From an uncultured Spirochaetota bacterium (GTDB lineage Bacteria > Spirochaetota > Spirochaetia > SZUA-6 > Fen-1364): DNA of 64,000 bases. The stretch covers positions 1,920,001-1,984,000 of the forward strand of contig CAWGAA010000001.1 in NCBI GenBank assembly GCA_963820525.1, read 5' to 3'. Within the stretch, counting starts at the first letter, position 1. Each line of letters begins with the position of its first letter. Under the pieces are notes generated by a model. That model was not told the origin of the DNA and made no database searches. It was given only the letters and a program-made list of their open reading frames with translations. This document shows, in pieces, positions 34,216 through 49,311 of this stretch. The position numbers and the translations under genes were made by a program.

Positions 34216-35184
34216 CTACAAGCGGCCGTCAAGGGGACTCTTGATGGCGATGCCCGGCTTCTTCATGACATGGGTATAAATCATGGTGGTTGACACGTCG
34301 CTGTGGCCCAAGAGCTCCTGCACCGTGCGGATATCAGTGCCGGTTTCCAGCAAATGTGTCGCAAAACAATGGCGAAATGTGTGGCAGCCGATGGGCTTAA
34401 CGATACCGGCAAGTTTCCCCGCTCTCTTGACGGCGCGCTGAAGCACGGATTCATGGACATGATGTCTTCTGCGTGTTCCGGTTTGGGGGTCCGCAGATAG
34501 ACTCTTTGCGGGAAACACATATTGCCATGGCCACTCGGTTTCCGCCGAAGGGTGCTTTCTCGACAGAGCGTACGGAAGCTCGACACCCCCGAAACCTCGC
34601 TTGAGGAACTCCGTATGCAAGGCTTGCACCCTCACAAGATGCCTTTTCAGCTCCGCCACAAGTGCCACAGGAAGAACGGTAACGCGGTCCTTGAACCCCT
34701 TGCCCTCATGCACGGTGATCTGTTGCAGCTCAAAGTCGATATCTTTCACGCGCAGACTCAAACACTCCTTCAATCTCAGCCCGCTTCCGTAGAGAAGACC
34801 AGCCATGAGTCGAGTCTCTCCCGTCAGAACGGCCAACACTCTTTCAATCTCGTCGGCCGACAGCACCACGGGTATGCGTTTCGGGCGCCGGGCGCGGATG
34901 GCATCTATCGATCCGAGCTCTTTATGAATAACGTTCTTGTAGAAAAACACCAGAGCGTTGAGCGCCTGGTTCTGCGTCGAGGCGGAAACCCGTTCATTCA
35001 CGGCGAGATGATTGAGGAAGGCCTTGACTTCGACATCACCCATCGACTCAAGCGCACGTCTCTTGTGGAAATTGAAGAAGCGGCCAACCCAATTTACGTA
35101 GACTCGTTCTGTTTGAAGAGAGTAATGCCTCAGTCTCATTACATCTCTAAGATGATCTGAAAGCTGGTGCTTCTGTACGTCCAT
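34216..35184 (-). CDS. intI: Integron integrase (tyrosine recombinase)
   Basis: [26 protein letters not shown]...TTMIY, and the IntI-specific insertion [10 protein letters not shown]...WQYVFPA...RRHH; divergent from the cassette array. Confidence 0.95.
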
Positions 35185-35569
35185 CAACGATGTCCTCCTG
35201 GTTTGAAGTTCTGGACGGCAAATCCAAGTGATGGTCTAATAACCAGCGCTATATTCAGCAATGACGGCTGGATTATTCATTCTGATTGAAAAAGAGAGCG
35301 TTTTTGCATAGATAGAATGGTGATTTCGGGCGCGAGAATTGATTAAGAAGTCTATGGTAGGCAAATAGCGTGCATATCCAACTGCAATCGGCCTATTAAC
35401 GTACGGATAGATGTAATAAACTCTATAAGGGTTGCTTCCGAGCGATTCTGCGAATAGCAATACGCCAACGGAAGCAAGATGCACGGAAGCTATCGCGCGG
35501 AAAGGCTGTCATTCTAACGAATAAGCAGCGTTTCCCTGCGGAAAAGGTGGATATGAATGACTGAATGTC

Positions 35570-35598
35570 TTATTTTGCTAGATACTCAGTAGTTATGT
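35570..35598 (+). other. attI recombination site (crossover G|TT at 35592)
   Basis: GTTATGTCTC at 35592 is the exact reverse complement of GAGACATAAC at the end of cassette 1; no attC structure upstream of it. The left boundary is approximate. Confidence 0.75.
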
Positions 35599-35710
35599 CT
35601 CTCTATTTTTGGATAACGGGCGCTGTAAGGTATACTCACTGGCAGCATCCCAGATTACCACTTGCAGAACATCAGTCGTGGTGGTAAGTTTATATTGAAA
35701 GGAGAGATCT

Positions 35711-36565
35711 GTGAGATTCAACATCGTTAGTCTATCAATCATTCTATCAATCTTTGCAACATCCACATGGGCACAGACCAACGTTGAGACTTATGGGGTC
35801 ACCTATAGGACAATAGATGGCAAAGAGCTTCAAATGGATATTCAGAGGCCTCAACCTGTGGGTGTTCCGAAACCAGTAATCGTATTTCTTTGCGGTAACG
35901 GCTGGGGATATGAGAGGACTATAAACCGCGAATCATTCTGGTATGCTCTGGACCTTGCTAATGAACATGGATATGTCGCAGTCACCGTAGACTACAGCTC
36001 ATCAGCGCAGAACTCCAACGGCAGGCCAATTGGAACTTTTCCGTCCCAAATCTATGACGTTAAAAGTGCTATACGCTTTCTGAAGGCAAATGCAAAGCAG
36101 TACGATATCGATCCAACTCGGATTGGAGTCATTGGCTTCTCATCAGGAGGAAACTTGGCGCTGCTACTCGCGCTTACGCTTCCGGCAGATGGACTCGAGG
36201 GGCATGACGACTATCTCCAGTATTCCAGCTCAGTGCAAGCCGTTGTCAATCTTTCGGGGGCAACAGATCTAGTTAGTTGGAATAAAGAGCCATTTGTCAG
36301 TGCATATTTGGGAGGCTCTCTTCAGGCAAAGCCAGAACAATACAAGAGAGCTAGTCCCATCAACTATGTGAAGCCAGGCATGGCGCCGGTCTTAACCATC
36401 CATGGGGAAAAGGATATGATTGTCTCCCCCGATCAGGCACGGATGCTTGACGCGCGAATGAAAGAAGTGGGCGCGTCTCACACTTTGATTATTAAAAGTG
36501 ACTTAGGTCATAATGATGAGATTGATCAGAATGTATGGGATTTCTTGGAGAAAGCTCTAAAATAA
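35711..36565 (+). CDS. Cassette 1: secreted alpha/beta hydrolase (esterase/lipase, BD-FAE-like)
   Basis: RBS GAAAGGAG, signal peptide, DVKSAIRFL, GFSSGG nucleophile elbow, HGEKD, C-terminal His. Confidence 0.85.
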   Translation: MRFNIVSLSIILSIFATSTWAQTNVETYGVTYRTIDGKELQMDIQRPQPVGVPKPVIVFLCGNGWGYERTINRESFWYALDLANEHGYVAVTVDYSSSAQNSNGRPIGTFPSQIYDVKSAIRFLKANAKQYDIDPTRIGVIGFSSGGNLALLLALTLPADGLEGHDDYLQYSSSVQAVVNLSGATDLVSWNKEPFVSAYLGGSLQAKPEQYKRASPINYVKPGMAPVLTIHGEKDMIVSPDQARMLDARMKEVGASHTLIIKSDLGHNDEIDQNVWDFLEKALK

Positions 36566-36603
36566 CTTATCGGCGTAAAAGGACGAAAATTCAGCCAGGA
36601 GAG

Positions 36604-36719
36604 ACATAACATGCTGTTGGAGCAGACCGCTTAGGCTACGCGTCGTTACTAATTCATACGTGTGCTAAAGTAATTGTACCTGTATGATGCTGCGCGGCTG
36701 CTCAACAGCGTCGTTAGGC
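36604..36719 (+). other. attC site 1 (116 bp)
   Basis: ACATAAC-ATGCTGTTGGAGCAGACCGC...GCGGCTGCTCAACAGCGTC-GTTAGGC imperfect palindrome. Confidence 0.9.
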
Positions 36720-36798
36720 GTCCATAAAAATGGCTGTAGCGGTTTGAAAGAGTCTTTCACTCCTACAAGATTCAAGAACCTTACCTGGAAAGACACCA

Positions 36799-37278
36799 TC
36801 ATTCACCGGTTGATTCTGGTGGCTGCCAACCATCTGTACCTAGAAAAGCATTGACATCCACTCCTAGCCCCCTAGATAGTGCACATACTGATTGCCATAG
36901 AGGCTTTGTCCTGGTTCCTTGCTCAAGTTGCCGGATGGTACCGACATCTAGACCTGAGTTACTGGCGAGGCTTTCCTGAGTTTGCCTTGCTTGTTCCCGA
37001 AGACGCTTCAACCTAGAGCCAAATGGCTCGTCGCGAACCCATCGATCATGAATCCACGAGCAAGAAATCACCTCCATTGTGACGTTTTCATGATGGCGTC
37101 GCGAGGGAACAGGGGAATCTTTGGCTAGTAGGCCGCTGTCAATCAGCTCTCGATGAAGCTTTTCGTAGAAGCTGACATTACTTATATCTCCATAGCTACG
37201 GTGTCCCCAAGCTCCTTTTATGAGCCAATCTCCTTTCTCACCCTTGATCTTTGTAGGCCTAAGAATTAATGATCCCAT
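36799..37278 (-). CDS. Cassette 2: XRE/Cro-C1 HTH protein in inverted orientation
   Basis: C-terminal FGSRLKRLREQARQTQESLA...TIRQLEQG...LSRGLGV; RBS AAGGAGG. Confidence 0.8.
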   Translation of the reverse strand: MGSLILRPTKIKGEKGDWLIKGAWGHRSYGDISNVSFYEKLHRELIDSGLLAKDSPVPSRRHHENVTMEVISCSWIHDRWVRDEPFGSRLKRLREQARQTQESLASNSGLDVGTIRQLEQGTRTKPLWQSVCALSRGLGVDVNAFLGTDGWQPPESTGE

Positions 37279-37301
37279 GACAGCTCAATCCTCCTTGCAC
37301 A

Positions 37302-37331
37302 ACTATATCATATGTGGTAGAACTATGTCAA
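37302..37331 (-). promoter_or_regulatory. Cassette-internal promoter for the HTH gene
   Basis: TTGACA-N18-TATAGT with extended TG; overlapping GTAGAA(A)CTAT direct repeats. Confidence 0.6.
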
Positions 37332-37450
37332 CTGTAGTAGAAACTATTATAGGGCACTTCCGAAAAAGGAATAAATCGCTTGAACCAACAGCTTGTTACG
37401 GAGAAAATTGCCATAGCTAATAGTCGCCCAGATTGGCAATAAAGCTGGAC

Positions 37451-37567
37451 GCCTAACATGCTGTTGGAGTTGACCCCTTAGGTTGCATTTGGGAAGTGCG
37501 ACATCTCGTTGCTAAACCTCCGCTACCCTGCTTCGGGCGGCGGGGCAACTCAACAGCGTCGTTATCC
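37451..37567 (+). other. attC site 2 (117 bp)
   Basis: GCCTAAC-ATGCTGTTGGAGTTGACCCC...GGGGCAACTCAACAGCGTC-GTTATCC. Confidence 0.9.
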
Positions 37568-37996
37568 CCCCTGAATACTAGCTTTGTGCAACAGACATTC
37601 TTTTCAAATCATTTGATGATAAAAGATCCTACATAAGCGAACGACTTATAGCGACCGTCATGTTTGATCGATCAGACCTACTATCGAAAAAGCAGGGCGA
37701 ATATCTCCGGAAGTTCGGCGCCCCCCCTAACATATCCTCATGGCATTTTACCTGACCACACCGGCAGTTACCATATCCTACCGAAATATAATGTGTTTAT
37801 GGCCACCCGTCGTATTTTATCTATCAGTAGCTTGGCAGCAGTATTCTCCGGGGGCTTATAAGGAAGTCAACGCTACGCGTCATAAGACTTGCAAGACTTC
37901 ATAGATATATGGATAATGATTACCTTCACGCAAGAGATTGCATTGAACATTCTATTCGTGAAGTTTCGCAAAGCTGCGAACAGAAGGATTAATAGA

Positions 37997-38416
37997 ATGA
38001 CATCATGGGCATTCAACCCTCACTCTGGAGGAATAACGATATCCCCCACATTAAAAAGGGACATTGCCGAAAGGCTTGAAAAGCACGCGGCCTCGAATTA
38101 CAAAGGTCTGTATTTCCGGATAGACATCAGGTTCCGCGGGGTATTGTGCTATATAGACGCTTATAAAGAACCCAAACCGCCAGATAAGAAGCTTTTAGAG
38201 ATAAACCATGAGAGCATGCAAGCCTACACTGAGAGGATGCGGAACTTCCCAATACATATTGGCAGAATCCGGCATTTCGGAGATGACAGATGGAGCTATG
38301 CATTCTACACCTACAGCAATGAACGCTATGAACCTGCGACATTTGGAAATGGAGAATGGTTTGGTACCCCAGAAGAGGCGTTCGATATCGGTGCAAGGTA
38401 TCTCATGGATGAATAA
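37997..38416 (+). CDS. Cassette 3: hypothetical protein
   Basis: MTSWAFNPHSGG...RFRGVLCYIDAY...RWSYAFYTYSNERYEP; stop abuts attC3; the ORF may extend to 37889. Confidence 0.7.
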   Translation: MTSWAFNPHSGGITISPTLKRDIAERLEKHAASNYKGLYFRIDIRFRGVLCYIDAYKEPKPPDKKLLEINHESMQAYTERMRNFPIHIGRIRHFGDDRWSYAFYTYSNERYEPATFGNGEWFGTPEEAFDIGARYLMDE

Positions 38417-38424
38417 TTCAGGGG

Positions 38425-38541
38425 GGATAACAAATCGCTGGAGCAGACGCCTTGACCTACGCTTGAGAACTGGAAGCTACGCACGCTAAACTGAGGCCGC
38501 GGGGCGGTGGTCGGCGGCGCTGCTCAGCTCTATCGTTATGT
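38425..38541 (+). other. attC site 3 (117 bp, AAATCG subtype)
   Basis: GGATAAC-AAATCGCTGGAGCAGACGCC...GGCGCTGCTCAGCTCTATC-GTTATGT. Confidence 0.9.
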
Positions 38542-38611
38542 GGCCGAAACTAGAACTCAGCCGTCATTCTTGATCCCGGGCAATCTGCTGATCATACAGA
38601 ATGGAGAAGAC

Positions 38612-39205
38612 ATGAAGTTCCCGACAGAACTAATAGCCGCGCTTGTAGGCGGTCTCTTCACACTGCTCGTGGCGGTCATCGCCTCTTTGATACAAGGGAG
38701 ACAATCCACAAGAATCCTAAGACTTCAGCTTGAGCATCAGGACAGGAAGGAGGCTACCTCTCAGAGAAGAAAGTACATTGAAGAGCTCTTTATTGCAGTT
38801 AAGCACTGGTTCGACATGATATTCATTGACAACATGAATTACCGCAGAGTTATGGATGGCAAGTTGACCTATAACCAAGCCCTCGACCTCACAATAAAGA
38901 ACATGGGGGATCAAGATTACGACTTTAAAAGAATCGAAATGATTATTTCTCTGTATTTCCCTACTCTAGAGGAAGACCGAAACGCAATAATGGATACTCA
39001 AAGCAGAGCAAGAGATATCATAGATGAATTTAAAAGAACCTACGAAAACGGAACGTACACGAGTGCGGAATCCTCCCTCCAGCTTGGGGGGGTTATTGAT
39101 GAGCTTCTCAAAAAGTACCGGACGCTGGAGGACGCTATCTTGAAGTTGGCAAGAAGCGAATCCAGAAGTTACCCTTTTCTCTCGGAAGGCAGGTCGGTGG
39201 AATAA
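38612..39205 (+). CDS. Cassette 4: hypothetical protein with N-terminal transmembrane helix
   Basis: RBS GGAG, MKFPTELIAALVGGLFTLLVAVIASLIQ, then a helical domain. Confidence 0.75.
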   Translation: MKFPTELIAALVGGLFTLLVAVIASLIQGRQSTRILRLQLEHQDRKEATSQRRKYIEELFIAVKHWFDMIFIDNMNYRRVMDGKLTYNQALDLTIKNMGDQDYDFKRIEMIISLYFPTLEEDRNAIMDTQSRARDIIDEFKRTYENGTYTSAESSLQLGGVIDELLKKYRTLEDAILKLARSESRSYPFLSEGRSVE

Positions 39206-39337
39206 TATTCCAATTGTCACAAAGGCTATTCCTATCGGAAAGTTCGGAAAGAATGATTGCCTATTGTTACGCTATTGCTCTTGCTCCAAGTATGATGATG
39301 ATTGTTCTATCCATTCATATTGCTGTACAAGGCGGCC

Positions 39338-39454
39338 ACATAACATGCTGTTGGAGTTGACCGCCTAGGCTACGCTTCGTTGCCAACAACTACGCGCGTT
39401 GGAGCTTTTGTTACTTGGATGATTCGGGGCGGCAACTCAACAGCGTCGTTAGGC
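39338..39454 (+). other. attC site 4 (117 bp)
   Basis: ACATAAC-ATGCTGTTGGAGTTGACCGCC...GGCGGCAACTCAACAGCGTC-GTTAGGC. Confidence 0.9.
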
Positions 39455-39510
39455 GCAAATTGAGGATCATGAGTGGAAGTCCGACTGCTTGACACAAAAG
39501 GAGACTTGTC

Positions 39511-40428
39511 ATGAATGTTCTGGACTCTATCGGAAACACGCCACTGATTCAGCTGAGTCGAATCGTGCCAAGTGGCGCCGGCCATATTTTCGTCAAGCTC
39601 GAGATGTGTAATCCAACAGGCAGCATGAAAGACCGCATGGCGCGTGCTGTTATCGAAGCCGCCGAGCACGGGAATCGGCTGACTCCCGGTGGAACGGTTG
39701 TCGAATACACAGGCGGTACGACTGGGATCTCGCTCGCATTCGTCTGTGCTGCGAAGGGATACAGTATAGAGATCGTGTTTTCTGATGCCTTTAGCCCGGA
39801 AAAAGCCCAAATAATGAAGGCGCTGGGAGCTCACGTTACAGTTGTGCCAAGCGGAGGCAAGGGAATCACTCAGAGTGTCATCATGCGAATGATAGAGCAG
39901 GCAAGATCCATCAGCCAAAGGCCAGGCCACTGGTGGTCGGACCAGCTAAACAACAGGGACGCGGTTGGGGCCTATCACGCACTCGGGGAGGAAATCTGGG
40001 AACAAACAAAGGGCAGGGTGGATGCATTCGTTCAAGCCGTAGGTACGGCACATTCAATTCATGGGACAATGGAGGCACTGTCTGGGCATAAGCAGAACAT
40101 TCACGTGGTGGCGGTAGAGCCCGAGGAATCAGCGGTACTCTCTGGCCGCGCACCTGGATCGCACAGCATCGAAGGGTCGGGTATCGGATTTGTGCCCCCT
40201 TTGTGGGAACCAGATAAAGTACACGAGATAATGACGGTCTCCACTCAAGAGGCCGAGGCAATGGCACGGCGGTTGGCGCGAGAAGAGGGGATTTTCGCCG
40301 GCACTTCGTCAGGTGCGAATGTAGTTGCAGCACTTCGACTCGCTGAGCGACTGGGCCCCAAAGCAACCGTTACGACGCTAATGGTTGACTCAGGCCAACG
40401 CTACCTAAGCACTGGCGTGTTTCGGTAG
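39511..40428 (+). CDS. Cassette 5: PLP-dependent cysteine synthase family protein
   Basis: IGNTPL, KLE..NPTGSMKDR, AREEGIFAGTSSGAN, DSGQRYLS. Confidence 0.9.
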   Translation: MNVLDSIGNTPLIQLSRIVPSGAGHIFVKLEMCNPTGSMKDRMARAVIEAAEHGNRLTPGGTVVEYTGGTTGISLAFVCAAKGYSIEIVFSDAFSPEKAQIMKALGAHVTVVPSGGKGITQSVIMRMIEQARSISQRPGHWWSDQLNNRDAVGAYHALGEEIWEQTKGRVDAFVQAVGTAHSIHGTMEALSGHKQNIHVVAVEPEESAVLSGRAPGSHSIEGSGIGFVPPLWEPDKVHEIMTVSTQEAEAMARRLAREEGIFAGTSSGANVVAALRLAERLGPKATVTTLMVDSGQRYLSTGVFR

Positions 40429-40499
40429 TTCCATATATCGAAGCAGTTGCCGGTTTGCGCCTAACATCTATAACAACGCGTCTGTCAAGAAGACGAAAG

Positions 40500-40641
40500 C
40501 TCCAAAACCTCCTTCGAACACTACTATGATATAGCCGGTCCTACCGGAAACATCTATACGCCCTCATCGGGGCATGATCACCTGCAGCAGGGATGTCACA
40601 ATCAAATCGCGTGCCTGTAGCGGCACATGTTAGGCACGTGC
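40500..40641 (-). ncRNA. Putative bridge RNA / seekRNA of IS copy 1
   Basis: GCCUAACA-[GUGCC/GGCAC hairpin]-CGAUUUG matches both halves of the target. UAUAGAUG-[CCGGU/ACCGG hairpin]-UAUCAU matches the circle junction. Transcript ends are not known. Confidence 0.8.
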
Positions 40642-41700
40642 TCACCCCTGCCTCGGTGAGACCTTCAATGGCTCTCGATATGGCTCGTTTTTCTTGAGGA
40701 CCCAAAAGGTGGATTCCGATAGATGACGGGCGAGCGCTCCGATGGCCACAGAGGATCCTTTGCGACCGCGAATCCTCAGATACAGCCTGGAGACGTGGCG
40801 GCCTATCCAGCCGCGCTGTGCGTGGTGCGCTGAGATTGCATTTGCCGCCTCGATGAAGGCCCATTTGAGATATTGATTGCTCTCGGTCCTCATTTTCCCA
40901 TAGTGGCACTTGCCACCGCTGGAGCTCACCCGTGGAGTGGTGCCGCTATAACTGCTGAACTGTGAAGCGGTGCAAAACCGCTCGATGCAACCGACCTCTC
41001 GATCGATAACGATTACCAAAATGTCCCCGACGCCAGGAAGAGTCTTTAGCAGCTGCATGCTGGGGGTTAGCGAGACCTGGCTGCGGATGCGCTCCTCCAA
41101 AGAGGATATCTGAAGGCTGATGAAATCCAGAAGTTGGAGATGTTGTTCCAAGCAGCGAGCTGTCTCCGGGGGAAGCCGGGACACGGCAGAGCTCAACCAT
41201 GATCGTCCCCGCTGTGAGAATACCTGGCAACCATCCTCAGCAGACAAGGCGTACTTGGCAAGGATCGAGTGAATGCGGTTCTTCAAAGACGTTCGCATCC
41301 TGCACAGGACCATTCGTGTGCGAGGCAATTCGCGCTGATCACGTAGGCCAGATGGCGGCAGCCAAACGGTAGGAAGGCTGCCAAGCCTAAGGAGGGTAGC
41401 AAGACCACCGGCGTCCAGTTTATCGGTCTTGTTCACATTTCCCATCAACAGTTTGGCCTTGCCGGGATTTGTTAGCAAAGGAACACACCCTGAAGCTTCG
41501 ATTTCATCAGCAATCCAGTACCAATTGCCTACGCTCTCCAAAGCAACCGGGGTGCCAGAGGGGAGTCGTGAGAAAAAGCAGGAGATGGTTCCCGGAGCAT
41601 GATTGATACGGACTCGATTCAGAACCTTGCCCTTCGGGTCCTGGATCTCGAGCTGAGAGTAGTGCTTATGAGCATCACACCCAACACTCAACGACTGCAT
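40642..41700 (-). CDS. IS110-family DEDD recombinase/transposase
   Basis: GCDAHK, ALESVG, KTDKLDA (DEDD), LPGVG, SSSGGK serine motif; RBS GAGGAGG. Confidence 0.95.
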   Translation of the reverse strand: MQSLSVGCDAHKHYSQLEIQDPKGKVLNRVRINHAPGTISCFFSRLPSGTPVALESVGNWYWIADEIEASGCVPLLTNPGKAKLLMGNVNKTDKLDAGGLATLLRLGSLPTVWLPPSGLRDQRELPRTRMVLCRMRTSLKNRIHSILAKYALSAEDGCQVFSQRGRSWLSSAVSRLPPETARCLEQHLQLLDFISLQISSLEERIRSQVSLTPSMQLLKTLPGVGDILVIVIDREVGCIERFCTASQFSSYSGTTPRVSSSGGKCHYGKMRTESNQYLKWAFIEAANAISAHHAQRGWIGRHVSRLYLRIRGRKGSSVAIGALARHLSESTFWVLKKNEPYREPLKVSPRQG

Positions 41701-41969
41701 TCTGCACCTCCTCATGGGCGACGTAGCCCTACGGAGCACAATAGTAGCAAGCGATGCAGCGCTGTTATATTATCAAATCGTTGCAGTTGTCCCCTAGAAA
41801 GCTGTGTCGAACAGCTGATTCAGCCTGGCAATTCCATTGGGTGCAGTGCTGATGCGGCGGGGCAACTGAACTCTATGTTATGAGGCGCAAGTTTTTTTAA
41901 GACGTTTTGCGTCGGCAGCTTGTGCGAATCTAGTCAGTATGATATATACCTTATTTTGGGGGTAATTCC

Positions 41970-43187
41970 ATGATTCACAAGCTATTGCTAAAGAACTTCA
42001 GAGCTATTGAACAACAGGAGATAGAACTTGGAAAAATTTCAATCTTTACTGGTCCCAATAATAGCGGGAAGTCTACTCTTATCTACGGACTTCTCACCCT
42101 CAAAAACATGATTCTCAACTCAAACCAAAGTCTTGATGGTTTTTTGAACCTGGGATTCCTTAGCCTAGGTGGTTTTAGCCAGACAGTTTATTTTAAGGAC
42201 GAGAATAGGCAGATCTCAATAGGTATTGGAAGCAAGACTGAAGAAATATCTTCAGAATATATGGCTACACTTGGAAAAAAAGCAAGTACACTTAATATAC
42301 ATGCACATGAACCATTAGAAATCAGCTTAGATCTCAATGTTACTTTCCCATACCCAGCTAATGCTAGCACAGGTGCAGAGCTACAGACAGACTACGGAAA
42401 GCTCAGCATTACGTGGAATGGTATAACGCCTACGCTAACGGCCGAGAGTGTTGAGGCTGATTTAGTTCCGAAGCAGAAGGAATTGCTCCGCAAAGTTTCG
42501 CTTTCTATAACGAATCCGCTAGAAGAACTAAGATCGGTTGATTTCATTCCTCTTCGACGTGGTTTTATAAAACCTACTTACTCATCTGTTCCCCTACAGG
42601 CGCAACTTCTAAGCGATGAAGAACTCGCAACGCTCCTTGCTACAGATCGTGACTTAGAAGGAAAGGTTGCCTTCTATCTTGAAAAAATCTTGGATCGGAC
42701 TTTTTCTGTCAGGTCAACAATTGGCACTGCAAATTTTGCCCTTCAATCAAGAGATAGAGTAACAGGATTTGTCAGCGACCTTGTTAATGAAGGATTTGGT
42801 ACTAACCAGCTTGTTACAATATTAACAAAGGCTCTACGGAAAGAAGTTTCAACTATCTGCATTGAGGAAATAGAGATCCATTTGCATCCTGAACTCATGA
42901 ACAAAGTAATATCAGTGCTGATCGATATCGCAAACGAAGAGAACAAACAATTTATTATTTCTACTCATAGTGAGCATATTGTTTCTTCAGCTCTAAACCA
43001 TATTTCAACAGGTAAACTTAATAGTAGTGACTTTAAACTTTACTATCTCCACAAGGAAAAGAAGCGTGCAATTGTTGAGCAGCAGATAGTAAATGAAAAA
43101 GGTCAAGTAGAAGGCGGACTTAAAAGTTTCTATGATACAGATCTGAAGAATATTAGAGACTTTTTTAACATCAAAAACGAAAAATAA
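41970..43187 (+). CDS. Cassette 6 gene 1: ABC/AAA_15-21-type ATPase with DUF3696-like C-terminus
   Basis: LKNFRAI, GPNNSGKS, GFGTNQ, IEEIEIHLHP, STHS, NEKGQVEGG..SFYD. Confidence 0.85.
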   Translation: MIHKLLLKNFRAIEQQEIELGKISIFTGPNNSGKSTLIYGLLTLKNMILNSNQSLDGFLNLGFLSLGGFSQTVYFKDENRQISIGIGSKTEEISSEYMATLGKKASTLNIHAHEPLEISLDLNVTFPYPANASTGAELQTDYGKLSITWNGITPTLTAESVEADLVPKQKELLRKVSLSITNPLEELRSVDFIPLRRGFIKPTYSSVPLQAQLLSDEELATLLATDRDLEGKVAFYLEKILDRTFSVRSTIGTANFALQSRDRVTGFVSDLVNEGFGTNQLVTILTKALRKEVSTICIEEIEIHLHPELMNKVISVLIDIANEENKQFIISTHSEHIVSSALNHISTGKLNSSDFKLYYLHKEKKRAIVEQQIVNEKGQVEGGLKSFYDTDLKNIRDFFNIKNEK

Positions 43188-43654
43188 TGAACCTCGTTGT
43201 CAATGAGTGGCTACTCGAGTTTTTTTTGCCAGGTACACTTCCAGAGAATTATGAAGAGCTTTTTAGGTTTTTTGACAGTGTTCAAGAATGCAAACGTAAA
43301 ATAATAATTGGACGGGAGACACAATTCACTATTAAATTCTACCGTTTCATGAAATTATATGGCAATAATCTATCATTCAAGCAGAATTACGTTAAACTCC
43401 ATCGACTTTTATTTATCGACACTACCCGTACAATTATAGTTGAAAGACATGAAATTAAAAATATTCCTGATAAAGATATGGAAGGTGTTCATAGTGATGA
43501 TCGCTATCTACTTGAGCTTGCAGCCTCAGTTCCTAACAGTATAATTATATCAACTGATAATCGGCTTATAGATGCATTAGCAAGAATGCCACAATACCCA
43601 ATTATTCATTTGAAGGATTATTTAAAAACTTTCAATGAAAAAGGATGTGAATGA
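43187..43654 (+). CDS. Cassette 6 gene 2: PIN-like domain protein
   Basis: TAATG coupling; MNLVVNEW...DDRYLLELA...IIISTDNRL resembles PIN acidic motifs. Confidence 0.6.
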   Translation: MNLVVNEWLLEFFLPGTLPENYEELFRFFDSVQECKRKIIIGRETQFTIKFYRFMKLYGNNLSFKQNYVKLHRLLFIDTTRTIIVERHEIKNIPDKDMEGVHSDDRYLLELAASVPNSIIISTDNRLIDALARMPQYPIIHLKDYLKTFNEKGCE

Positions 43655-43659
43655 GCGCC

Positions 43660-43777
43660 TCATAACATGCTGTTGGAGTTGACCCCTTAGATTACGTTTG
43701 GAAAGTCTTAGATTACGCTGCTAAACTGCCGCTTACCTGCTTCGTGCGGCGGGGGCAACTCAACAGCGTCGTTATGT
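43660..43777 (+). other. attC site 6 (118 bp)
   Basis: TCATAAC-ATGCTGTTGGAGTTGACCCC...GGGGCAACTCAACAGCGTC-GTTATGT. Confidence 0.9.
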
Positions 43778-43966
43778 GGCGTTGGCGCCGAAGGCAAGGT
43801 GTCCATGCGCTCCAGCCGGTGAACATGCTGGCGGCGGAGATCTTACACTTTGCGGTGGCAGACGGGAATGATCTACTTCGCGGAAATTGGGCCGTCGCAT
43901 CGCATCGACCATCAGGCCGACGCGGAGGTCTGCGCTCTCATGCCGGATTTGTCGGGGAGGTGACAA

Positions 43967-44626
43967 GTGAGCGACCTATACAAGAAGCGATTCGCAGAGC
44001 TTCAGCTACAGATGGAGCAGCTTCTCGCCTCAAAGAAGTCGGCTTTCGACGAGTACCTACATAAGACTCGCGAGGAGATTGATGGCAATCTCCTACTCGA
44101 GTGGACGGTGAAAACAAGAAGCCTGATTGGCAAGGCGTGCGGAATGGAATCGGAACACTACAAGGAGTTCTCTGAGAACGATGCCACAGGCGCGTACAGT
44201 ACTTACCTAGCCACGCTCGAACGTCTTCGGGCAATCTTCCTTGCCGCAAAGGAAGATTACGAAGGCGGGTATCTGAGGACCACCAGATCACTCGTACAGG
44301 CGGACCTTTTCGACTCCGAACTGGAGCAGGCGACGTCACTGATTGACGCTGGCTACAGGCTACCTGCTGCTGTCGTGGCTGGAGTGGTCTTGGAGACGTC
44401 ACTCAGAGAGCTCTGTACACGGGAAGGGCTGCCGCACGGAAAACTTGATAAAATGAATTCGGATCTGGCCAAAGCTGGAAAGTACAACGTACTCCAGCAG
44501 AAGCGAATCACTGCGCTCGCAGATATCAGAAACGCAGCTGCTCACGGCAATCCTGAGAATTTCACTGATCAAGACGTGATAGACATGATTCGAGATGTCA
44601 AACGGTTTCTGGCTGAACACGCGTGA
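43967..44626 (+). CDS. Cassette 7: HEPN/DUF4145-like protein
   Basis: RBS GGAGG + GTG; AAVVAGVVLE..LR and RNAAAH (RxxxxH) motifs. Confidence 0.75.
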   Translation: MSDLYKKRFAELQLQMEQLLASKKSAFDEYLHKTREEIDGNLLLEWTVKTRSLIGKACGMESEHYKEFSENDATGAYSTYLATLERLRAIFLAAKEDYEGGYLRTTRSLVQADLFDSELEQATSLIDAGYRLPAAVVAGVVLETSLRELCTREGLPHGKLDKMNSDLAKAGKYNVLQQKRITALADIRNAAAHGNPENFTDQDVIDMIRDVKRFLAEHA

Positions 44627-44738
44627 TGCGGACGCGTGATTCGTTGAGCAGCAAATGGGTCATTCAGCGAAGAAGCGACTTTTGCAGCCCAAGCGCCACA
44701 TAACATCTATAACAACGCGTCTGTCAAGAAGACGAAAG

Positions 44739-44880
44739 CTCCAAAACCTCCTTCGAACACTACTATGATATAGCCGGTCCTACCGGAAACATCTATACGC
44801 CCTCATCGGGGCATGATCACCTGCAGCAGGGATGTCACAATCAAATCGCGTGCCTGTAGCGGCACATGTTATGCACGTGC
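44739..44880 (-). ncRNA. Putative bridge RNA / seekRNA of IS copy 2
   Basis: Identical to copy 1 except the target guide GCAUAACA (T at 44872 on the plus strand). Confidence 0.78.
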
Positions 44881-45798
44881 TCACCCCTGCCTCGGTGAGA
44901 CCTTCAATGGCTCTCGATATGGCTCGTTTTTCTTGAGGACCCAAAAGGTGGATTCCGATAGATGACGGGCGAGCGCTCCGATGGCCACAGAGGATCCTTT
45001 GCGACCGCGAATCCTCAGATACAGCCTGGAGACGTGGCGGCCTATCCAGCCGCGCTGTGCGTGGTGCGCTGAGATTGCATTTGCCGCCTCGATGAAGGCC
45101 CATTTGAGATACTGATTGCTCTCGGTCCTCATTTTCCCATAGTGGCACTTGCCACCGCTGGAGCTCACCCGTGGAGTGGTGCCGCTATAACTGCTGAACT
45201 GTGAAGCGGTGCAAAACCGCTCGATGCAACCGACCTCTCGATCGATAACGATTGCCAAAATGTCCCCGACGCCAGGAAGAGTCTTTAGTAGCTGCATGCT
45301 GGGGGTTAGCGAGACCTGGCTGCGGATGCGCTCCTCCAAAGAGGATATCTGAAGGCTGATGAAATCCAGAAGTTGGAGATGTTGTTCCAAGCAGCGAGCT
45401 GTCTCCGGGGGAAGCCGGGACACGGCAGAGCTCAACCATGATCGTCCCCGCTGTGAGAATACCTGGCAACCATCCTCAGCAGACAAGGCGTACTTGGCAA
45501 GGATCGAGTGAATGCGGTTCTTCAAAGACGTTCGCATCCTGCACAGGACCATTCGTGTGCGAGGCAATTCGCGCTGATCACGTAGGCCAGCTGGAGGCAG
45601 CCAAACGGTAGGAAGGCTGCCAAGCCTAAGGAGGGTAGCAAGACCACCGGCGTCCAGTTTATCGGTCTTGTTCACATTTCCCATCAACAGTTTGGCCTTG
45701 CCGGGATTTGTTAGCAAAGGAACACACCCTGAAGCTGGACCTACCCCGATTTCATAGACACATGGTTAAGCAGTATTTTAGAGGGGTAAGGAAAGGCA

Positions 45799-46089
45799 AT
45801 GGCAGACACGAGGAAGAAATACACCAAAGAGTTCAAGCTCGATGCCATCCGGCTCCTGGAGTCAGGGACAAAGCCGGGACATGAGATTGAACGGGATCTG
45901 GGAATCGGCAGCGGACAGATCTACCGCTGGAGGAAGCAATTCAGTGAGGACGGGACACGAGCTTTCCCAGGCAACGGCAGGTCCCGTGACGAGGAATTGG
46001 CCGCCTTGCGCAAAGAGAACAAGGAGTTGCGTGAGGAACGGGACATTTTAAGAAAAGCAACAGCCATCTTCTCCAGACCCCCGAGATGA
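45799..46089 (+). CDS. IS3 transposase OrfA
   Basis: RKKYTKEFK, HTH, LREERDILRKA. Confidence 0.92.
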   Translation: MADTRKKYTKEFKLDAIRLLESGTKPGHEIERDLGIGSGQIYRWRKQFSEDGTRAFPGNGRSRDEELAALRKENKELREERDILRKATAIFSRPPR

Positions 46090-46955
46090 AGTACCAGATC
46101 ATGAGTAAACAGCGGGGAACCCACGGCGTGGAGAAGATGGCGGAAGTATTGGGAGTAGCGCGCAGTGGGTACTATGCCTGGCTCGACGGTAAAGAGAGTG
46201 CACGAGCACTCGAGGAGAAGGAGCTGATCGAGCAGATCCGGAAGATCCAGGGCGAGGTGCGTCACAGCTACGGAAGCCCGCGCATGCGGGAAGAACTGCT
46301 GAGGCGTGGGCGGCATGTGGGGAAGAACCGAGTTGCCCGAATCATGAGAGAGAATGCCCTTGGGCCGCAGCCGAAGAGGCGGTTTGTAGTGACCACGCAC
46401 TCGAAAGACGGCCAGGAAGTGGCCGAAAACATAGTGAACAGGAACTTCGAAGCCTCCGCGGCGAATCGCGTGTGGGTGTCCGACATAACCTACGTTGCGA
46501 CAGCCGAAGGGTGGATGTATTTATGCATCGTACTGGATCTGTACTCACGTCGAGTGGCGGGCTGGTCGCTGAGCTGCGAGCTGAGTGCCGAGCTGGTGCT
46601 GACGGCGGTAGTCATGGCCGCGATTCGTCGCCGCCCGCCGCGGGGACTGTTGTTTCATTCCGATCGCGGTGTGCAGTATACCAGCGGTCAGTTTGAAAAG
46701 TTTGCCAAAGGGCACGGATTCATTCAAAGCATGAGCCGTAAGGGCGACTGTTGGGACAACGCGTGCGCGGAGACGTTTTTCAAGACCTTGAGAGCAGAGT
46801 TGATTCGGGACAAGATCTACCGAAGCAGAGAGGAGGCCAGGAGAGCAATATTCGAATACGTGGAGATCTTCTATAATCGCAAGCGGCTTCACTCGTACCT
46901 CGGCTACCTCACACCGACCGAATATGAGGAGCTCGAGGAGCGGAAGACGGCATGA
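46086..46955 (+). CDS. IS3 transposase OrfB (DDE)
   Basis: [39 protein letters not shown] overlap with OrfA. Confidence 0.95.
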
Positions 46956-47618
46956 TTGACGATCCAAGCCAGAGTGAGGAAAAAGCCTTGCGCGTAGAGG
47001 GCCGTGGTTGCGTTTTCGGAAGGCAGGTGGTGTTTGGATACCCCCCCGAAACCGAGACGCAGGTGCAATTCAGGGTGTCCACGAAATCGGGGGAACTCCA
47101 AGCTTCGATTTCATCAGCAATCCAGTACCAATTGCCTACGCTCTCCAAAGCAACCGGGGTGCCAGGGGGGAGTCGTGAGAAAAAGCAGGAGATGGTTCCC
47201 GGAGCATGATACGGACTCGATTCAGAACCTTGCCCTTCGGGTCCTGGATCTCGAGCTGAGAGTAGTGCTTATGAGCATCACACCCAACACTCAACGACTG
47301 CATTCTGCACCTCCTCATGGGCGACGTAGCCCTACGGAGCACAATAGTAGCAAGCGATGCAGCGCTATTATATTATCAAATCGTTGGAGCAGTCGCCTTG
47401 GACGCCCGTCGGAACTGTTGGTTCAGACCCGTAAGGAAGACCGATCTGTGGTTGTAGTCGGCGGCGCTGCTCAACTCTATGTTATCTGGACTTGCTGGCG
47501 TTCCCCTGACCGCCGGTGAACCTCGGCGCCGTCTTCGACTGACCTCACGCTCCCCTTCTGGGTACCATATCGAAAGGTTGGCGAAACGTTCGTTTGACAA
47601 GTGAAAAGGAGGATGTGC

Positions 47619-49274
47619 ATGAAACCCGAGAGAGTCTTTGCTGTTCTTGCCTTTGCGATCCTGCTGGTAGCTTCGGCCGGCGCAGCCGCGTCCGACCCCC
47701 TCGACACGTGGAGCACAAACTTTGGCGCAACCACGGACGTTGCCGCGGCGGGGATAACCACGTGGATATCGGGGACACGCGTGTCAATCGACATGACAAA
47801 CGTCAATTCGGGTGGCAAGTCCGTCAGGACCTCCGGACCGGTAGGCGACTCGCATATACTGCAGCCGGTCTTCGCGTTCGGTGGCTTGACGGGCAGTGAC
47901 AAGATCGATCTTTCGGACAAGACCCTGGACGTAGAGATGTTCGTGCCAGGCGACTCGCCGCTGTCCTGGCTGGCCATCGAGGTGACGGCCGGGGATAGCT
48001 ACATCATTGTCAAAGGCAGCATAACCCCGCAAAAGGGCCGTTGGTGCAGCTACGAGGTGAATATTGCTATGGTTCTCGCGCTGGGTAGCTGGCAAACGTA
48101 CGACTGGATGCATTCTCCCAGCATTTCTTCCCATGGGGACGCCGTCAATCTGCTCAAATCCGCGCAGGCCATCAAGATAGACGCACAGGCCGATCCGGTG
48201 GTCAATAAGGCGATCGATGCCTATTTTCTGATTGACAGTGTGGGCTGGAAACCTTCCGATGCCATTGCCACGCCAGAGTTCTCTGCCTCCACGAGCGCCG
48301 AGCGCCCGGATGGCTTTCCCCGCCGGTTCCATGTGGAGGGGAACGCCTTTGTCGATCAGGCCGGTCAACGGAAGGTGTTCCGAGGCGTATCGATGCCCGC
48401 GGTTCGCCTGGCCATGATGCCGGACCCAGCCCAGCCGGAATGGAACGAGCACTATTTCCAGGTCATGGCGAATTGGGGCGCCGACGTCGTTCGGGTGCCC
48501 GTTGATCCCTTCAGTCTGCACCACGTTCCATGGGATTCCCTGACTACCGCCCTGGATCAGACCATCGCGTGGGCGGGCAAGAACAGGATGTACGTCATCA
48601 TCGACTTCCACTCCGGCGGCTCGATCGCGGAAAACTGGTACAACGGCTACAAGGAAGATCCCTATCTTACGACAAGTCTGAAGGAGTTCCTGGATTTCTG
48701 GGGCAAGATTTCCCTTCGCTATGCCAACAACGACATTGTTGCCTTCTATGAATTGTTCAACGAGCCGGCCAACCCGGCAAGTCCCCCGACAAAAGCCATG
48801 TGGGTGACATGGAAAGGGATTGCGGAGCAGGCCATCGCCGTCGTCCGCGCCAACGCTCCGGAGAAAACCATCCTGGTGGGCGGGTTGGCCTGGGGATACG
48901 ATCTGTCATTTGCCGCGGATGCGCCGGTTGCAGACGGCAATGTTGGCTATGTGACCCATCCCTATCCAAAATCGGCAATCTGGATCAGCAAGGATTGGGA
49001 TGACGCGTTCGGGAGACTGAGCGAGCGCTGCCCGGTCTTTGCGACGGAGATCGGCTATCAGAACGACATGAAGGATTTCGTAGACATCACGGTGAATGGC
49101 ACGCGCTACAGCAAGGCAATCGTTGATTACCTCGAGAAGCACCTCATCAGTTGGACCGCGTGGTGCTTCGATAACGTCTGGTTCACCTGTCTTCTGGCGG
49201 ACAGGAATTTCACGCCGACGCAGTCCGGAGCGTATTTCCGAGATCGATTGCTGGCCGCGAAACGGTCCCCGTGA
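47619..49274 (+). CDS. Secreted glycoside hydrolase family 5 with N-terminal accessory domain
   Basis: RBS AGGAGG, signal peptide, WGADVVRVP, IIDFH, ELFNEP acid/base, HPY, ATEIG nucleophile. Confidence 0.88.
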   Translation: MKPERVFAVLAFAILLVASAGAAASDPLDTWSTNFGATTDVAAAGITTWISGTRVSIDMTNVNSGGKSVRTSGPVGDSHILQPVFAFGGLTGSDKIDLSDKTLDVEMFVPGDSPLSWLAIEVTAGDSYIIVKGSITPQKGRWCSYEVNIAMVLALGSWQTYDWMHSPSISSHGDAVNLLKSAQAIKIDAQADPVVNKAIDAYFLIDSVGWKPSDAIATPEFSASTSAERPDGFPRRFHVEGNAFVDQAGQRKVFRGVSMPAVRLAMMPDPAQPEWNEHYFQVMANWGADVVRVPVDPFSLHHVPWDSLTTALDQTIAWAGKNRMYVIIDFHSGGSIAENWYNGYKEDPYLTTSLKEFLDFWGKISLRYANNDIVAFYELFNEPANPASPPTKAMWVTWKGIAEQAIAVVRANAPEKTILVGGLAWGYDLSFAADAPVADGNVGYVTHPYPKSAIWISKDWDDAFGRLSERCPVFATEIGYQNDMKDFVDITVNGTRYSKAIVDYLEKHLISWTAWCFDNVWFTCLLADRNFTPTQSGAYFRDRLLAAKRSP

Positions 49275-49311
49275 AGATGCCGAGAGGGATATTTGCCCCG
49301 TGAAGCGTTCG

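Follow-up and report, generated by a model that had tools for sequence, protein, structure and literature searches.

A predicted RNA-guided IS1111-type element in attC sites of a chromosomal integron from an uncultured Spirochaetota bacterium

SeekRNAs, the guide RNAs of the IS1111 group of insertion sequences (ISs), co-purify with the transposases of ISEc11, ISPa11, ISKpn4 and ISPst6, are required for movement and can be reprogrammed (PMC11187229). For ISKpn4, ISPst6 and ISPa25, which target the attC sites of integrons, such RNAs were demonstrated by experiment in 2024 (PMC11187229), and the known IS1111-attC elements ISPa21, ISPst6 and ISKpn4 lie close to the 5′ end of attC in antisense orientation relative to the cassettes (PMC3001079). 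In the seekRNAs of the IS1111 family the match to the top strand of the target stands 5′ of the match to the bottom strand, the reverse of the IS110-type order (PMC11187229; table in PMC13604230), while the subterminal inverted repeats measure 7–17 bp in the IS1111 group and 2–3 bp in IS621-type elements, and donor-binding bases have been reported in IS1111 orthologues, often in a multi-loop (PMC11208160). Here we describe an element with the predicted features of this group, hereafter copy 1, in a stretch of 64,000 nucleotides (the window) from contig CAWGAA010000001.1 of an uncultured Spirochaetota bacterium, where it interrupts an attC site of a chromosomal integron antisense to the cassettes.

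We put at about nine in ten the probability that copy 1 is an RNA-guided IS1111-type element of the IS110 family, combining a DEDD recombinase with a structured guide RNA (a seekRNA or bridge RNA of ~90–110 nt) that is predicted to lie after the stop codon of the transposase gene. The transposase matches PF01548, the DEDD domain (E 8.4e-13, residues 6–150), and the C-terminal domain PF02371 (E 3.9e-17), and it scores 195.3 bits, against a cut-off of 140, with the NCBIfam model NF033542 for an ‘IS110 family RNA-guided transposase’. Its matches in the PDB are solely to the transposases of IS621 (8wt6, E 7.5e-13) and ISCro4 (9t56, E 4e-11); the significant alignment takes in the C-terminal half of the protein only, and the S-G of the motif G-x2-P-x4-S-G aligns with the IS621 motif. 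Among 20 aligned sequences D9, E55, D93 and D96, which we take by analogy to be the DEDD residues, are invariant, as are G253, P256 and S261 of the C-terminal motif, with G262 nearly so. This motif has been described for the family, in which IS1111 transposases have 330–350 aa (PMC11187229), so that the length of 352 aa, singled out as compact in a preliminary description of this locus, is ordinary. The assignment to the RNA-guided IS1111 type made in the same description is borne out by the DEDD and PF02371 domains, the NF033542 match, the subterminal repeats, the long 3′ non-coding region and the order of the guides in the predicted RNA.

Copy 1 is intact, its body measuring 1307 bp without cores, to which one CA core is added. 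On the plus strand the left junction reads GCCTAA-CA followed directly by TCTATAAC, and at the right junction TATTAT is followed by CA-AATCG (coordinates in Table 1). The CA core stands at 40465–66 and 41774–75 in copy 1 and at 44704–05 and 47377–78 in a second copy within the same array, with no further duplication. These junctions agree with the preliminary description, in which both copies were placed at TAA-CA-AATCG in attC, against the array orientation and with a CA core at both ends; its span of 40459–41780 locates the feature correctly but takes in both target halves, the element proper being 40467–41773 plus one CA core. A few bases inside the ends lies a subterminal inverted repeat of 11 nt, 91% complementary, which in relatives reads TGAAAGCGCTGC/GCAGCGCTTTCA. 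The non-coding sequence amounts to 175 nt after the stop codon (40467–40641) versus 73 nt before the start codon (41701–41773).

The target of copy 1 is the 13-bp sequence GCCTAA-CA-AATCG, which reads CGATT-TG-TTAGGC in the orientation of the element. It lies at the 5′ end of one attC flavour, where it comprises the R″ box and spacer; the core CA takes its C from the end of the R″ box and its A from the base that follows. Because this target spans the R″ box and spacer of attC, the element lands in integron cassette arrays, and since the transposase is encoded on the minus strand and the cassette open reading frames (ORFs) on the plus strand, it lies antisense to the cassettes. Metagenome contigs with a different upstream sequence join precisely at 41774. 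Candidate target strings for the element are GCCTAACAAATCG, ACATAACAAATCG and GGATAACAAATCG.

Read in the RNA sense, the sequence from the stop codon onwards is UGA-GCACGU-[GCCUAACA]-U-(GUGCC-GCUACA-GGCAC)-G-[CGAUUUG]-AUUGUGAC, with the two target guides in square brackets and the hairpin between them in parentheses. The reverse complement of plus-strand positions 40603–40635, GCCUAACA-U-GUGCC-GCUACA-GGCAC-G-CGAUUUG, matches this exactly, as it does the hairpin flanked by target halves that had been read from the sequence before. The 5′ arm, GCCUAACA, is complementary to the top strand of the target and the 3′ arm, CGAUUUG, to the bottom strand, and the two matches overlap at the TG core. An independent search for repeats returned the same pairing as 9 nt of 100% complementarity between 40459–40467 and 40627–40635. 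The loop is closed by a short helix, stem A, which has A-U in the window where most relatives have G-C. In some loci from Chloroflexota and Actinomycetota (L007–L012, L022–L027 and L031) the transposase gene runs into the right-target guide, GCC-UAA-C, whose UAA also serves as the stop codon. Over positions 40518–40665 of the window, metagenome contigs of three studies reach a depth ~3 to 50 times as high as over most of the transposase gene (90% likeness threshold), and of all parts the guide-RNA region appears to be the best conserved among related elements.

The correspondence between guide and target is beyond chance, because the two copies, the wider family and the near relatives each show it. 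The two copies differ by eight substitutions and one 4-bp indel in ~1.3 kb. The change 40633 G>T turns GCC of the guide into GCA. At the partner position of the flank, copy 1 has C (40461), whereas copy 2, with the guide GCAUAACA (44867–44874), has A (44700). Both alleles at 40633 occur in contigs of three of four metagenome runs. For the family, 77 loci were taken from genomes, one species each; six had no stop codon in reach, and the other 71 were examined together with the window copy. The element ends in these 72 loci were located by the subterminal-repeat motif alone, and the flanks were sought near each locus's own stop codon, free of any alignment. As 23 loci lacked one flank, which left 49 with both, and seven had duplicate flank pairs, 42 unique flank pairs were tested. 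The right guide matches its own flank at a mean of 6.62 of eight positions versus 5.22 in cross comparisons, with seven or more matches in 22/42 own and 43/1540 cross pairs, and not one of the 1540 cross pairs reaches 8/8. A perfect left guide (7/7) occurs in 15 of the 42 own pairs versus six of 1360 cross pairs. The distance between the two matches is 24–29 nt in 31/42 pairs, being 25 or 26 nt in 23 of these 42.

The near relatives number 22, namely the two window copies, L004, L068 and 18 metagenome loci (67–90% protein identity); L096 (doubtful end), L161 (duplicate of L159), L111 (guide overlapping the stop codon) and loci lacking the right flank were left out of this comparison. Among the 11 near relatives with guide C, eight have flank C; of the 11 with guide A, ten have flank A and not one has flank C. 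The guide base thus tracks the flank with a Fisher p of 0.001 for copies that are not all independent, shared descent being ignored. The left arm likewise follows its own flank in L004 (CGACAUG), L090 (CGACUUG), L107 (CGAGAUG) and L114 (CGAGUUG). Guide–target covariation among homologues, by which the preliminary description had proposed to check its reading, is thus strong both within the genome and across relatives.

A second loop follows in the RNA, [GUGAUCA]-(UGCCCC-GAUGA-GGGCG)-[UAUAGAUG]-UUU-(CCGGU-AGG-ACCGG), and probably corresponds to the ends of the element itself. Target and donor loops share one layout, in which the antisense of the right partner is followed by a hairpin and then by the sense of the left partner. 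The left-donor guide reproduces the last five right-end bases plus TG exactly in 53/53 loci, covering six variants, while cross controls reach at most 6/7. For the probable right-donor guide at its fixed place the self mean is 5.06/7 versus 3.76/7 for cross comparisons in the 53 loci, and 2.45 versus 1.14 when the four variable bases only are counted. The target loop is clear on both arms, as is the left-donor guide, and the right-donor guide gives a moderate signal only. A right-donor guide 3′ of hairpin 3 (UAUAUCA) was considered and rejected, as relatives have no covariation there and the signal lies just 5′ of hairpin 2.

The structure of the RNA was assessed on 43 aligned sequences, with RNAalifold and with a four-helix model that was set against shuffles and against helices with slid partners. 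RNAalifold recovered hairpins 1 and 2, with seven of eight pairs compensated. In the four-helix structure 91.7% of cells are paired, versus 78.4% in shuffles and 28–41% when the partners are slid, and 103 cells are changed on both sides versus 25 in shuffles.

Table 1. Positions in the window of the element, its predicted guide RNA and the surrounding integron features.
Feature	Position	Strand	Remarks
IS copy 1, body	40467..41773	-	ends set by subterminal repeats and homology with 52 relatives
Subterminal inverted repeat, right-end arm	40469..40479	-	pairs with 41759-41769
TTGACA (-35 box) in right end	40483..40488	-	read from the element ends
Hairpin 3 (CCGGU-AGG-ACCGG)	40535..40547	-	after donor loop; helix 4, 72% of cells paired (43 sequences)
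Left-donor guide UAUAGAUG	40551..40558	-	identical to last right-end bases plus core (TATAGA-TG)
Hairpin 2	40559..40574	-	inside donor loop; helix 3, 99.5% of cells paired, 3 pairs compensated
Probable right-donor guide GUGAUCA	40575..40581	-	complementary to core plus left end TG-ATAAT: 5 Watson-Crick and 1 G-T wobble of 7
Stem A, 3′ strand (UGUG)	40597..40600	-	closes target loop; helix 1, 100% paired, 2 pairs compensated
Left-target guide CGAUUUG	40603..40609	-	equals left flank plus core CGATT-TG in element orientation, 7/7
Hairpin 1 (GUGCC-GCUACA-GGCAC)	40611..40626	-	between both target guides; helix 2, 93.4% paired, 4/5 pairs compensated
Right-target guide GCCUAACA	40628..40635	-	complementary to core plus right flank TG-TTAGGC, 8/8
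Stem A, 5′ strand (CACG)	40637..40640	-	directly 3′ of stop codon
Transposase gene, 352 aa from ATG	40642..41700	-	DEDD/RuvC-like N-terminal domain; C-terminal domain with G-x2-P-x4-S-G motif
Subterminal inverted repeat, left-end arm	41759..41769	-	pairs with 40469-40479
Target half beside element right end, GCCTAA, with core CA	40459..40466	+	complementary to 40628-40635; GCCTAAC is the R″ box of the preceding cassette's attC
Core CA with target half AATCG	41774..41780	+	spacer between R″ and L″ of attC
Remainder of split attC	41781..41883	+	ends in GTTATGA (R′); resembles other attC sites of the array
Empty attC, near-cognate target GGATAACAAATCG	38425..38437	+	same array as the element
intI	34216..35187	-	TIGR02249, PF00589, PF13495; context for the attC targets
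IS copy 2, dead	44706..47376	-	flanks ACATAA-CA (44698-44705) and CA-AATCG (47377-47383)

By analogy with ISEc11, ISKpn4 and IS621, the element would excise as a circle in which right end, TG core and left end are joined. The circle junction would create a promoter driving the transposase and the downstream RNA, the complex of RNA and protein would pair the junction with the target, and strands would be exchanged at the TG/CA core with no other duplication. No promoter-like site was found in the integrated copy 1. Joining the element ends would place the TTGACA of the right end 17 nt, counted by hand, from GATAAT, which consists of the core G and the left-end bases that come first. Of 52 relatives, 49 have a TTGACA-like box in their right end. 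We infer that a junction promoter of the form TTGACA–17 nt–GATAAT arises upon circularisation, as has been published for the IS110/IS1111 family (PMC11208160, PMC13604230).

Several observations weigh against the RNA-guided reading and keep it short of certainty. A scan of Rfam 15 at E values up to 10 gave three chance-level matches (E 4.7–7), none of them on the RNA region; the single-sequence fold of the non-coding region is not better than that of shuffles (z = -0.64), folding energy alone being uninformative; and among 20 runs listed there was no RNA run with the guide region. Three of the 11 near relatives with guide C stand at a flank other than C, many family members match just 6/8 at the right guide, and the covariation counts ignore the shared descent of the copies. 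In the window the right-donor guide is weak, at five of seven pairs plus a wobble, and weaker than the other three guides. Lastly, the genome has just two copies of the element, one of them dead, and three attC-type sites with the target string TAACAAATCG are unoccupied in the same genome (window 38425, G000:C3:839850 and G000:C3:855608).

These last two points, together with the lack of a detectable promoter-like site in the integrated copy, also speak for the possibility that copy 1 retains the architecture of an RNA-guided IS and is nevertheless a fossil that no longer moves in this genome, a state compatible with the RNA-guided reading that we regard as unlikely, though worth taking seriously. 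Copy 2 is indeed destroyed, being broken by a nested IS3-family element (45736–47100) and a 4-bp deletion in the transposase gene. Conversely, the 352-aa ORF of copy 1 is intact and keeps all columns that are invariant in the 20-sequence alignment, and both ends and all four guides are present. Over the two blocks that the copies share, identity is 99.4% and 97.9%, values that point towards a recent transposition, and the occurrence of both guide alleles in contigs of three of the four metagenome runs likewise argues against a fossil.

In the contigs of the four DNA metagenome runs there is no empty-site joint for the copy 1 locus and no circle junction; one odd joint, from 41540 to 41759, occurs in a single contig, whose shorter side there measures 28 nt. 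In run X1, a contig over 40379–41497 combines the left flank of copy 1 and a G-type guide with copy 2-like substitutions and the IS3 junction; strain variation, recombination between the copies and chimeric assembly are all conceivable sources. The IS3-family element itself (NF033516, 349 bits) lies inside the copy 2 transposase gene and has an orfA (45799–46089) and an orfB (46086–46955); its ends, TGGACCTACCCCGATTTC and TGGAGTTCCCCCGATTTC, are inverted, and a duplication of 3 bp (AGC) goes with it.

The host integron occupies positions 34216–49300 of the window and contains the integrase gene intI, which is divergent from the cassette array lying downstream of it and scores 449 bits against a cut-off of 265 with TIGR02249, and at least seven attC sites in two sequence flavours. 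The sites between cassettes stand at 36604, 37451, 38425, 39338, 40459, 43660 and 44698; four are of the flavour TAAC-ATGCTG-TTGGAG and three of the flavour TAAC-AAATCG-xTGSAG. Only the latter is used by the IS in this integron, two of its three sites being occupied and the one at 38425 empty. Each insertion splits one attC site, which presumably freezes the neighbouring cassettes. The sites G000:C3:839850 and G000:C3:855608 (loci L082 and L083), attC-like and unoccupied IS targets on another contig, suggest a second cassette array there, and the dead copy 2 has a guide to which the second of them (GCATAACAAATCGTTGCAG) fits perfectly. Between the two IS copies, at 41970–43654, lies a cassette that encodes an AAA_15/AAA_21 ATPase of 405 aa and an overlapping 155-aa protein without a family, a pair that looks defence-like; matches to the PtuA and MADS3 defence ATPases are weak and below the cut-offs.

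Metagenomic relatives of the element number in the thousands, the best with 92% identity, and the hosts of relatives are metagenome-assembled genomes (MAGs) of Spirochaetota, Chloroflexota and Actinomycetota. A blastn search of plasmid DNA with the element at the ‘distant’ setting gave no match, and the top-ranked plasmid-borne relatives have at most 33.6% protein identity among the matches listed. By tblastn the transposase is 23.4% identical to those of the IS5075 family and 23.1% identical to those of the IS4321 family, over 95% of the protein. The proposal that the element is probably a new member holds. A tree of 44 family members places the window in a pair with a Spirochaetota MAG, and all 13 attC-targeting members fall in one subclade of 19, interleaved with six members that have other targets; the tree needs two changes and is also compatible with one origin. 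The other 25 members have many other targets. Five family loci (L039, L040, L043, L044 and L047) adjoin sequence resembling the 3′ half of a tRNA (T-arm, acceptor and CCA). Actual tRNA targets for L039, L043 and L044 were considered on account of these flanks and rejected, as ARAGORN found a tRNA in 0/5 interrupted loci and in 0/52 rebuilt empty sites.

Whether the element belongs by descent to the IS1111-attC subgroup of ISPa21, ISPst6 and ISKpn4, as a direct member and not as a separate attC-targeting lineage, bears on how its habit arose, and we consider such membership doubtful. Its behaviour is that of the subgroup: like ISKpn4, ISPst6, ISPa21 and ISPa25 it lies close to the 5′ end of attC and is oriented against the cassettes, with an RNA downstream of the transposase gene, the same guide order and matches that overlap at the insertion point. 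The targets of ISKpn4, ISPst6 and ISPa25 are given in Table 1 of a review (PMC13604230) as ..GAA*CGAATTGTTAG, 20 nt, and this overlaps with the target here (CGAATTGTTAG listed for ISKpn4, CGATTTGTTAGGC here), the 13-bp target lying inside the ISKpn4 stretch with one mismatch. However, recognition extends over 13 bp here and over the 20 nt listed for ISKpn4, and whereas the crossover of ISKpn4, ISPst6 and ISPa25 is placed after a 6-nt spacer, the TG core here lies 5–7 bp nearer R″, according to the same review, a secondary source. The low identities to plasmid-borne relatives and to the IS5075 and IS4321 families also stand against membership, as do the hosts, which are uncultured environmental phyla and not Pseudomonas or enterobacteria.

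Tentatively, and with somewhat better prospects than descent from that subgroup, the element can be placed in a separate deep and environmentally widespread IS1111-type lineage (Spirochaetota, Chloroflexota, Actinomycetota and others), whose parasitism of chromosomal integrons would be independent of the IS1111-attC group of Pseudomonas and enterobacteria, with a crossover between R″ and spacer, a 13-bp code, and guides that drift base by base with the attC variant of each copy. The element itself is a new and distant member of this known kind, in a very divergent environmental clade, and its attC targeting possibly arose independently. If the separate-lineage placement is right, the drift of the guides would point to selection to stay excisable, because excision also needs a match to the flank, and the fully readable two-loop RNA with its TG core would be a new orthologue for programmable recombination.

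Hardly tenable, by comparison, is the reading that the protein itself chooses the target from the sequence or structure of attC, a structured site that is read by proteins such as IntI, and that the flank-like non-coding stretches arose incidentally, for instance by capture of a target fragment, as a match in a single element might have done. In relatives whose targets are quite different and not attC, guides that match stand at the same two places on either side of the conserved hairpin; the halves lie on opposite strands and overlap at the core, unlike a captured fragment; the two copies show a single-base compensatory change; and in ISEc11 reprogramming has shown the target to be set by the RNA (PMC11187229).

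The existence of attC-targeting IS1111 elements with a guide RNA, noted in the preliminary description, is documented by ISKpn4, ISPst6 and ISPa25 (PMC11187229), and as both mechanism and attC-targeting habit are already published no new question is opened. RNA-guided ISs that parasitise integrons, known from clinical and Pseudomonas integrons, would be extended in range to uncultured environmental phyla and their large chromosomal integrons. With dozens of targets and with all four guide segments and the RNA helices covarying, the family offers a clean set of natural data on the IS1111 branch, which has received less study than IS621, and the element a divergent orthologue whose guides can be read without experiments, as in the one-base guide change that matches a one-base target change.

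Comparison with the best described members of the IS110 family sets these features in context. ISEc11 has the same domain layout, 3′ non-coding RNA and guide order, and a junction promoter on circularisation that is published there and inferred here (PMC11187229). It differs in having a linear, non-attC target, and RNA recognition of the donor is not described in the accessible part of the seekRNA account (PMC11187229), whereas here a second loop probably matches both ends of the element. IS5075 and IS4321, of the IS1111 group, are named relatives and target a different sequence, the inverted repeats of Tn21. With IS621 and ISCro4 the element probably shares the two-loop logic, each loop pairing with both strands including the core dinucleotide (PMC11208160). 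In those elements, however, the bridge RNA lies upstream, in the left end, and its guide order is reversed, while here the RNA lies downstream of the transposase gene; the core is CT in IS621 (PMC11208160) and TG here, and the subterminal repeats are 2–3 bp in IS621 and ISCro4 versus 11–12 bp in the present element.

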